A stretch of DNA of 64,000 nucleotides, taken from sequence record PQ249397; one strand, 5' to 3'. Below are positions 49,171-50,921 of this stretch, one piece after another. The notes under the pieces are model-generated. The model did not search any database. It saw only the letters and a program-made list of their open reading frames with translations, and was not told the origin of the DNA. Each line of letters starts with the position of its first letter. The stretch's first letter is position 1. A program made the translations under genes and the position numbers. This DNA is from Escherichia phage Pu-Krd-SF3.

Positions 49171-49719
49171 ATGAATTATACTAAAGTATATAATAATTTA
49201 ATTAAGAAAGGAAAACTCAGAAAATTAGATAAATCTAAATTAAATTTTTATACGGAAAAGCATCATATTATTCCATCTTGTATTGGTGGTAATGATGATT
49301 CTGATAATCTAGTTTTATTAACAGCTAGAGAGCATTTTATAGCCCATTGGCTTTTAGCTAAAATTCATTATAATTCGCCTGGATTAATTTATGCATAGTG
49401 GTCATTTTATAATTTTGGAGAAGATTCTTTAGGAAGAAATCTCAAATTAACTTCAAGAGGATATCAGTTAGTTAGAGAAAAATTTTCAAAAATACATTCT
49501 AATACAATGAAAGAAATGTGGAAGTCTAATGAATACAGAGAAAAACGTTCGATAACATTAAGTCTTCCTGAAATAAGGGCTAAAATTTCAGAATCCCAGT
49601 TAGAAGCACAAAACAAACCGGAAGTTAAAGAAAAAATATCTAAAGGGGTGAAAGCTGCTTTTAAACGACCGGGAGTTAAAGAAAAACACTCTGCTGCAGT
49701 CAAAAAAATCTTTGAATAA
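49171..49719 (+). pseudogene. HNH homing endonuclease gene (mobD-like) interrupted by in-frame amber codon
   Basis: Frame 1 open from 49171 to 49719 except TAG at 49396-49398; N-terminal HNH-like HHIIP...GGNDD...REHFIAH, then NUMOD3-like repeats EVKEKISKGVKAAFKRPGVKEKHSAAVKK. Confidence 0.5.
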
Positions 49720-49934
49720 TTTTGAAACTAAAAAGAAACAATCAAATTCATCTAAAATTAGACAAAGAACTGGTAAACATTGGCAAGACTATGACTTACT
49801 TTATAAGTTATGGATTAAATTAAATAGACCTAAACGTGGGTCATTCGGAACTTATATAAGTAAATTAGGATATCCAAAATCTAATTATCATCGATTGATT
49901 GTACAATTTAATGAAGATTATGAAAGGTCTAATA

Positions 49935-50921
49935 ATGAAAACTGTAGTTAAGTCTTATTTTGGTAGTCATCTTTATGGAACTTCTACCCCAGAATCTGAT
50001 GTAGATTTTAAAGAAATCTTTGTTCCTCCTGCTCGTGATATTCTTATTGGAAATGTTAAAGAGCACATGAGTAAAAACACTAAAGATGATATTGACCATG
50101 AACTATACAGTCTTAAATATTTCTTTAAATTAGCAGCAGATGGTGAAACTGTAGCATTGGATATGCTTCACACTCCACCTGAATTAGTGGTTAAATCTGA
50201 TTTGCCTGATGTATGGAAATTTATCCAAGACAATCGTTCACGGTTTTATACAACTAACATGAAATCCTATTTAGGATATGTCCGCAAGCAAGCTTCTAAA
50301 TACGGTGTCAAGGGTTCTCGTTTGGCCGCATTACGTGATGTATTGAAAGTAGTTAATCAAATCCCTGACCAGTGGGTTGATTACCAAGAAGACGGTTCCA
50401 TTAAGCAGCGTCGCACTAAAGTTGAAGATATTAAGCATCGTCTTCCAGAAAACGAGTTCTGTGAATGGGTGTTCCATAATCATGAGAAAACAGGCCCGCA
50501 AACGTTCTATACTGTGTTGGGTCGTAAATATCAGACTACACTTTCTCTTATTGAGCTTAAGCAGTCTTTGAATAAACTTGATGCTGAATATGGTGAACGC
50601 GCTCGTAAGGCCGAAGCCAATGAAGGTATTGACTGGAAAGCATTGAGTCATGCTTGTCGTGGTGGACTCCAGCTATTGGAAATTTACAAAACTGGTGACT
50701 TAGTCTATCCACTCCAAGACGCTCCATTTATTCTCGACGTGAAGTTGGGTAAGCATCCATTTAAAACTGTTCAAGAGTTTTTGGAAGATGTGGTCGATCA
50801 AGTAGAAGCAGCATCCATTGAAGCTTCTAAGAATGGTATGCAGCAAAAAGTAGACATGGGTTTCTGGGATGACTTCCTTGAGAGGGTTTATCTTGAAAAC
50901 CATCGAAGTTATTATAAATGA
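49935..50921 (+). CDS. Nucleotidyltransferase-fold protein
   Basis: ORF track 49899-50921 (TTG); from MKTVVKSYFGSHLYGTSTPESDVDF: GS-x9-SDVD is the minimal NTase signature. Confidence 0.5.
   Translation: MKTVVKSYFGSHLYGTSTPESDVDFKEIFVPPARDILIGNVKEHMSKNTKDDIDHELYSLKYFFKLAADGETVALDMLHTPPELVVKSDLPDVWKFIQDNRSRFYTTNMKSYLGYVRKQASKYGVKGSRLAALRDVLKVVNQIPDQWVDYQEDGSIKQRRTKVEDIKHRLPENEFCEWVFHNHEKTGPQTFYTVLGRKYQTTLSLIELKQSLNKLDAEYGERARKAEANEGIDWKALSHACRGGLQLLEIYKTGDLVYPLQDAPFILDVKLGKHPFKTVQEFLEDVVDQVEAASIEASKNGMQQKVDMGFWDDFLERVYLENHRSYYK

Follow-up and report, generated by a model that had tools for sequence, protein, structure and literature searches.

Probable young pseudogene of the homing endonuclease gene mobD in Escherichia phage Pu-Krd-SF3, interrupted by an amber codon and a frameshift

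MobD of phage T4 is listed as a free-standing HNH homing endonuclease whose activity has not been determined and whose target is unknown (PMC2988022). In mixed infections MobA and MobE, which nick their targets, are inherited in excess, and homing endonuclease genes follow a cycle in which they degenerate once empty sites run out (PMC2988022). MobA and MobE of T4, as well as I-HmuI, combine an N-terminal HNH nuclease with a C-terminal DNA-binding region, and they are the analogues from which nicking, repair and co-conversion are presumed for MobD; unlike these enzymes, MobD has an HNH domain that scores below the Pfam cut-off and shows no NUMOD3 match. T4 mobD, encoding a protein of 259 aa, is also the closest described relative of the gene considered here, which is the same gene at the same locus with 99.6% nucleotide identity.

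This gene is found on the plus strand at positions 49171–49951 of the window, that is, of the whole 64,000-nt stretch of phage DNA that was analysed. Megablast placed the region in the T4-like phages (Tequatrovirus), with the mobD locus flanked by mobD.1 and nrdC.11. The first-pass annotation had described a mobD-like HNH gene hit by a nonsense mutation and a frameshift; the gene proved to be mobD itself, situated at the T4 locus, and both lesions were recovered in the alignment. A four-way alignment with T4T, Pu-Krd-SF4 and Pu-Krd-SF1, combined with a global alignment to T4T, demonstrated three differences from T4T mobD within the 781-nt gene (780 nt, or 259 codons, over the same span in T4), namely one synonymous, one nonsense and one frameshift change. 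At position 49371 the window has T in place of the C of T4, which leaves Tyr67 unaltered. At position 49397 A replaces G, a transition that converts TGG (Trp76) to the amber codon TAG at 49396–49398, as seen from the alignment and from the allele counts with a 55-mer given below. Finally, at 49702–49708 a run of seven adenines replaces the six of T4 directly after Lys178-Lys179, resulting in a +1 frameshift after Lys179.

The two lesions divide mobD into three fragments, all on the plus strand. Fragment 1 (49171–49398), delimited by alignment, PHROG match and structure model, covers codons 1–75 with the complete HNH (ββα-metal) core and ends at the amber codon. Fragment 2 (49399–49719), defined by its translation and PHROG match, covers codons 77–179 with the linker helices and NUMOD3-like repeats 1–3, followed by the out-of-frame residues IFE and a TAA codon. 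Fragment 3 (49709–49951) lies in the +1 frame and covers codons 180–259 and the stop codon, including repeat 4 and a conserved C-terminal helical domain. The frame from 49171 to 49719 had been described as open but for one TAG, and its translation indeed contains a single internal TAG (49396–49398) and a terminal TAA (49717–49719); the +1 frame at 49712–49951, previously suggested to be the displaced C-terminus, is, when read from 49709, 100% identical to residues 180–259 of T4 MobD. An uninterrupted reading frame of about 259 codons is absent from the window, being broken by TAG at codon 76 and by the +1 shift after codon 179; the three fragments, once conceptually repaired, align end to end with T4 MobD at 97–100% identity. 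These alignments identify the region as a known gene that has been damaged, and not as reading frames brought together by chance. Reading frames on the minus strand (e.g. 49464–49703) were discarded as mechanical, every annotated gene here being located on the plus strand. NCBIfam returned nothing meaningful for the region, and a scan for sigma-70 promoters found sites no more numerous than in shuffled sequence.

The final 17 nt of fragment 3 overlap the conserved downstream neighbour nrdC.11 (49935–50921, plus strand), annotated as a nucleotidyltransferase gene and preceded by its own Shine-Dalgarno sequence AAAGG, and T4 mobD shows the same 17-nt overlap. The nrdC.11 gene itself carries a 24-bp in-frame deletion at 50071/50072 relative to SF1 and T4, which is also found in GenBank SF4; the direct repeat TAAAAACAC borders the missing 24 bp on both sides in the longer allele, and the deletion looks like a product of slippage. 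Directly 3′ of nrdC.11, at 50923–50942, there is a strong bidirectional terminator-like hairpin (8 bp with six G-C pairs, followed by a T-run), and a terminator is annotated at the same place in the G9062 record. An Rfam scan of 47000–52000 gave a sub-threshold match to the L20-leader at this hairpin as its sole result, which was judged to be probably due to chance.

PHROG 655 ('homing endonuclease') was matched by T4 MobD with 1e-56, by fragment 1 with E = 2e-37 and by fragment 2 with E = 1e-8; fragment 3 alone had no PHROG match. A database search yielded 1640 MobD homologues, and conservation was evaluated in an alignment of 77 sequences, in which residues E29, H31, H32, I33, P35, G40, N46, H55, H59 and L62, forming the HNH core, are invariant. 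All of these precede codon 76, and E29, H31, H32, P35, G40, N46, H55 and H59 were found in fragment 1. The HNH-like N-terminus recognised in the first-pass annotation is therefore borne out by E29, H31, H32, N46, H55 and H59, although the Pfam HNH score of MobD, 21.0 bits, is just under the cut-off of 21.4. Among the 77 aligned homologues, HNH is matched in 65 and NUMOD3 (PF07460) in 43. As for the NUMOD3-like repeats, also proposed at that stage, four copies of the pattern [P/F][E/G]x[K/R]xK[I/H/Q]S are present at residues 133, 150, 167 and 184 with a spacing of 17 residues, which together with the NUMOD3-positive homologues partly supports the likeness, but MobD itself has no Pfam match to NUMOD3 at E ≤ 1. 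Homologues at 32–41% identity share the motif HW..LY.LW...P...F...GYP..NY in the C-terminal domain.

An AlphaFold model of the intact MobD (mean pLDDT 91.7) has strands at residues 28–32 and 47–51 and a helix at 52–65, together making up the ββα core (28–65), followed by long helices, and residue 76 is positioned inside helix 70–81. Foldseek comparison of this model with the PDB gave nothing significant (best E = 0.69), the sensible local matches being HNH domains only, with E of about 0.7 or higher. DNA binding by the tail of MobD is suggested by the domain order and by the occurrence of NUMOD3 in homologues. The predicted product of the gene in the window is a protein of 75 residues that keeps the HNH catalytic core and lacks the NUMOD3-like repeats and the C-terminal domain. 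Calling the gene inactivated assumes that the ancestral MobD was active.

Intact homologues read through both lesion sites. The 259-aa protein is matched over its full length and without a break in 39 Tequatrovirus records (99.2–99.6% identity), and the more distant intact relatives, i.e. full-length proteins at 74–81% identity encoded next to nrdC.11 and others at 32–41% identity, also continue through both sites, so that none of them ends naturally where the gene of the window is interrupted. Since these homologues pass both sites, the mobD reading frame is normally maintained; the 99% identity among the intact copies may, however, reflect recent spread instead of purifying selection. A 146-aa MobD fragment in a Logan assembly shows almost only C-to-T-type changes relative to T4 (S>F, P>L/F, H>Y, T>I, A>V), and it looks like bisulfite-converted reads of a T4 spike-in and not like a natural variant.

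The gene mobD occurs sporadically, being carried by 46 of the 723 phage records that matched. In comparisons with T6, G9062 and Solly, BLAST homology stops at 49121/49122 and resumes at 49931, and these breakpoints, together with junction alignments, delimit a mobD cassette of 809 bp (49122–49930, plus strand) that T4-type phages possess and that in phages of the T6/RB32/G9062 type is replaced by about 960 bp containing two other genes. T6, G9062 and Solly possess a paralogue of mobD.1 and a 153-aa reading frame at the position of mobD, the latter bearing the remark 'replaces mobD' in the T6 record. Global alignment to T4T furthermore revealed a tract at 49073–49987 (plus strand) that is nearly identical to T4 (99.63%, with three differences, all within mobD), whereas the flanking genes mobD.1 and nrdC.11 are 86% and 92% identical, respectively. 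The gene is thus sporadically present between conserved genes with an identity far above that of its flanks, as is typical for a mobile cassette, and the tract resembles a co-conversion tract, a pattern expected of recent horizontal acquisition.

An unannotated reading frame of 23 codons (MFISSGTDMCYKCKAKLNETKNQ) is located immediately upstream, at 49103–49174 on the plus strand. It is preceded by a strong Shine-Dalgarno sequence, GAGGA (49094–49098), and its TGA overlaps the ATG of mobD (ATGA). In the junction alignment the Shine-Dalgarno sequence, the ATG and the first 19 nt agree in every base with the beginning of the gene that occupies this position in T6/G9062, and the reading frame evidently represents the remnant start of the gene displaced by mobD, which by this alignment is the mobD.1 paralogue of T6/RB32-type phages with its 5′ end retained. 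No Shine-Dalgarno sequence of its own was seen for mobD; the arrangement, which is the same in T4, suggests that translation of mobD is coupled to the 23-codon remnant.

The amber allele was counted with a 55-mer centred on the amber base, so designed that every 28-nt megablast seed word covers this base. The version with TAG was found in exactly six records, all of them Pu-Krd-SF phages (SF1, 2, 4, 5, 6 and 7), and the T4 version with TGG in the other 40 of the 46 mobD-bearing records. The Pu-Krd-SF genomes compared (GenBank PQ249395/6 and PQ759884-7) are of different lengths, vary in their homing endonuclease genes and diverge by 2–15% in sequence elsewhere, and they are mosaics of one another. 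Thus, SF1 is 85–98% identical to the window over much of its length and has a different set of homing endonuclease genes, but both share a nearly identical block of 17.5 kb (46452–64000) that contains mobD with the amber codon. Since six mosaic sibling genomes carry the TAG, and since SF1 and the window are divergent outside this block, the amber codon is inherited and not a read error. Every record with the amber codon stems from a single isolation series (piglet faeces, Russia, host E. coli B), and this allele has so far no fully independent laboratory confirmation. The exact 75-aa and 70-aa products were not on record in public assemblies, and neither IMG/VR nor the JGI metagenome contigs contained a match to a 38-nt pattern in which the amber site was given as R. 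It may tentatively be proposed that a dead mobD allele has reached high frequency in one local mosaic population of T4-like phages, its amber codon being present in each of the six deposited Pu-Krd-SF isolates, travelling on a 17.5-kb block that recombines between divergent genomes. If true, the loss of MobD would be neutral or even favoured after local fixation of the cassette, and the population would be one of the rare natural cases in which homing endonuclease decay is caught at its onset, amber and then frameshift, and in which the cycle of invasion and decay could be measured directly.

Several other loci of the window concern homing endonuclease genes. A seg-like gene at 59863–60600, between gene 49 (endonuclease VII) and nrdD, encodes a putative GIY-YIG protein with the N-terminal motif YYYIGSK; it has 245 aa in the window versus 273 aa in Pu-Krd-SF1, one extra T at 60596 ending the reading frame 28 codons early. 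This gene may be a second decaying homing endonuclease gene, or else the longer form may be the derived one. The near-identical alignment of SF1 and the window is interrupted only at the junction 62429–62490, where the mobC position between nrdD and nrdG is occupied by a homing endonuclease gene in SF1 and is vacant in the window. At 32555–34015 there are nine tRNA genes (Gln, Leu, Gly, Pro, Ser, Thr, a tRNA with CAU anticodon, Tyr(GUA) and Arg); in GenBank a homing endonuclease gene is annotated between tRNA-Tyr and tRNA-Arg, the position of T4 segB, and in SF1 an HNH endonuclease gene takes the place of tRNA-Gln.

With regard to the frameshift, which had been placed near 49710, the seventh adenine is present in both the window and SF4, and its origin lies either in the phage or, less probably, in an assembly error. 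The run of seven was seen only in these two, T4, SF1 and all other mobD records examined having six, and the alignment lengths agree, all records except SF4 being one base shorter over the stretch. SF1, 2, 5, 6 and 7 have the amber codon without the frameshift, and SF4 and the window have both; since five siblings carry the amber codon alone, the amber codon preceded the frameshift. Comparison of the window with SF4 (PQ759884.1, positions 64001–128000) demonstrated no substitution and three one-base indels in 64 kb, at 28064, 34669 and 49245. At the first two positions the reading frames of the window are intact (150 aa at 27809–28261 and about 150 aa from 34397) and those of PQ759884.1 are frameshifted; at 49245, inside mobD, the window has five thymines as in T4, and the GenBank SF4 run is shortened to four, which creates an additional frameshift. 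This comparison implies that the deposited PQ759884.1 contains indel errors, and the window has the look of a corrected SF4 sequence in which the seven adenines are retained. The restriction of the seven-adenine run to SF4 and the window, the occurrence of two of these three indels in homopolymers, pointing to an assembly with a record of such errors, and the finding that two of the five small differences in the block shared with SF1 are one-base indels would all agree with a real amber codon accompanied by an artefact of sequencing or assembly in the homopolymer. The phage would then really carry the single-lesion allele of SF1, 2, 5, 6 and 7; even so, the gene would still be non-functional in non-suppressing hosts. 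This reading is nevertheless rather unlikely. The window is intact at two of the three other indel sites and has the T4-like five thymines at the third, yet it kept the seven adenines, which suggests that they survived polishing. Both one-base indels between the window and SF1 lie in dispensable homing endonuclease genes, which occupy 9% of the block, and such a placement is the picture expected of real mutations filtered by selection; a second lesion is, moreover, to be expected in an already dead gene. The view that neither lesion is real and that the gene is whole is scarcely credible: it draws on the general possibility of error and nothing more, and it would require the same G-to-A change in six separately deposited and mutually divergent genomes, although substitution errors of this kind are not systematic.

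It has also been considered whether the locus still makes a functional protein, either by suppression or read-through of the amber codon together with recovery of the frame on the adenine run, or as separate pieces, i.e. the HNH peptide of 75 aa and a DNA-binding fragment made from an internal start, acting together or in a new role. The 75-aa fragment keeps all the invariant catalytic residues, and the in-frame ATG at 49507 opens a reading frame of 70 aa in the window and of 147 aa in SF1, the latter being a second 'homing endonuclease' CDS in GenBank; adenine runs can, in addition, support low-level transcriptional slippage. However, there is no Shine-Dalgarno sequence ahead of ATG 49507, the amber codon cuts helix 70–81 of a domain that is modelled with confidence, and recovery of the frame would need a +1 shift or removal of a single A, whereas slips are usually −1. 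A conserved split arrangement was seen in no related phage, 39 of the 46 mobD records having single intact reading frames. Read-through in a suppressor host, allowed for in the first-pass annotation, stands as a formal possibility, but an amber-suppressor tRNA is absent from the tRNA cluster of the window, and the isolation host recorded for SF4 is E. coli B, the strain classically used as the non-suppressing host for T4 ambers. Suppression of the amber codon would, moreover, leave the frameshift in place, and with it the loss of the last 80 residues. A functional product in any of these forms is accordingly regarded as very improbable. Programmed recoding at the seven-adenine run was rejected, as it would also demand a +1 shift and the upstream amber codon makes the question moot.

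The best explanation is that the window very probably contains a T4-type mobD cassette in which Trp76 became an amber codon and slippage later added an adenine, i.e. a pseudogene of recent origin that has entered the degeneration phase of the homing endonuclease cycle. The intact MobD would presumably have been translated by coupling to the 23-codon remnant, and, by analogy with MobA and MobE, it would have nicked or cut the corresponding locus of co-infecting phages lacking mobD, after which recombinational repair would have copied the mobD cassette into the cut locus. In the Pu-Krd-SF lineage the G-to-A transition would then have come first, ending translation after 75 residues and leaving the HNH core without the NUMOD3-like repeats and the C-terminal domain, its presumed DNA-recognition parts. 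An A would subsequently have been added by slippage to the run of six adenines in the SF4 sublineage, putting the last 80 codons out of frame. The allele would now be in the degeneration phase of a cycle of invasion, fixation, decay and loss, presumably at no cost to the phage, because mobD is dispensable, most Tequatroviruses being without it.

GenBank relatives list the pieces of mobD as separate CDSs ('homing endonuclease' or 'hypothetical protein') rather than as a pseudogene; the three reading frames at 49171–49951 should be annotated as one mobD pseudogene. Many decayed homing endonuclease genes have been described from T-even phages, the allele is already in GenBank, and the current understanding of these elements is unchanged. 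The case does show the degeneration phase in T-even phages on a small scale, clearly and in a datable form: of the three changes from T4, two are inactivating, and their order is resolved by the siblings. A further damaged copy is found in phage vB_EcoM_WL-3 (MT968995.1, at about 970 of the locus), where an independent 2-bp TC duplication near codon 229 truncates the C-terminal domain of mobD, the gene being annotated as a 229-aa 'homing endonuclease'; this independent frameshift shows that decay of mobD recurs.

Compared with T4 mobD, the gene of the window differs by the Trp76 amber codon and the +1 frameshift after Lys179, and its flanking genes are merely 86–92% identical. The mobD genes of SF1, 2, 5, 6 and 7 and of SF4 have the amber codon in common with the window; those of SF1, 2, 5, 6 and 7 are free of the frameshift, SF4 has the seven adenines as well, and the GenBank version of SF4 contains the additional frameshift at 49245 that is absent from the window. 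Among other homing endonucleases, the T4 copy of I-TevIII is truncated. I-TevIII is listed as active only in RB3 (PMC2988022, Table 1). Both I-TevIII and the mobD of WL-3 are, like the gene in the window, selfish endonuclease genes that lose their function by point lesions while the phage is unaffected; they carry other lesions, whereas the mobD of the window has accumulated two whose order can be resolved.
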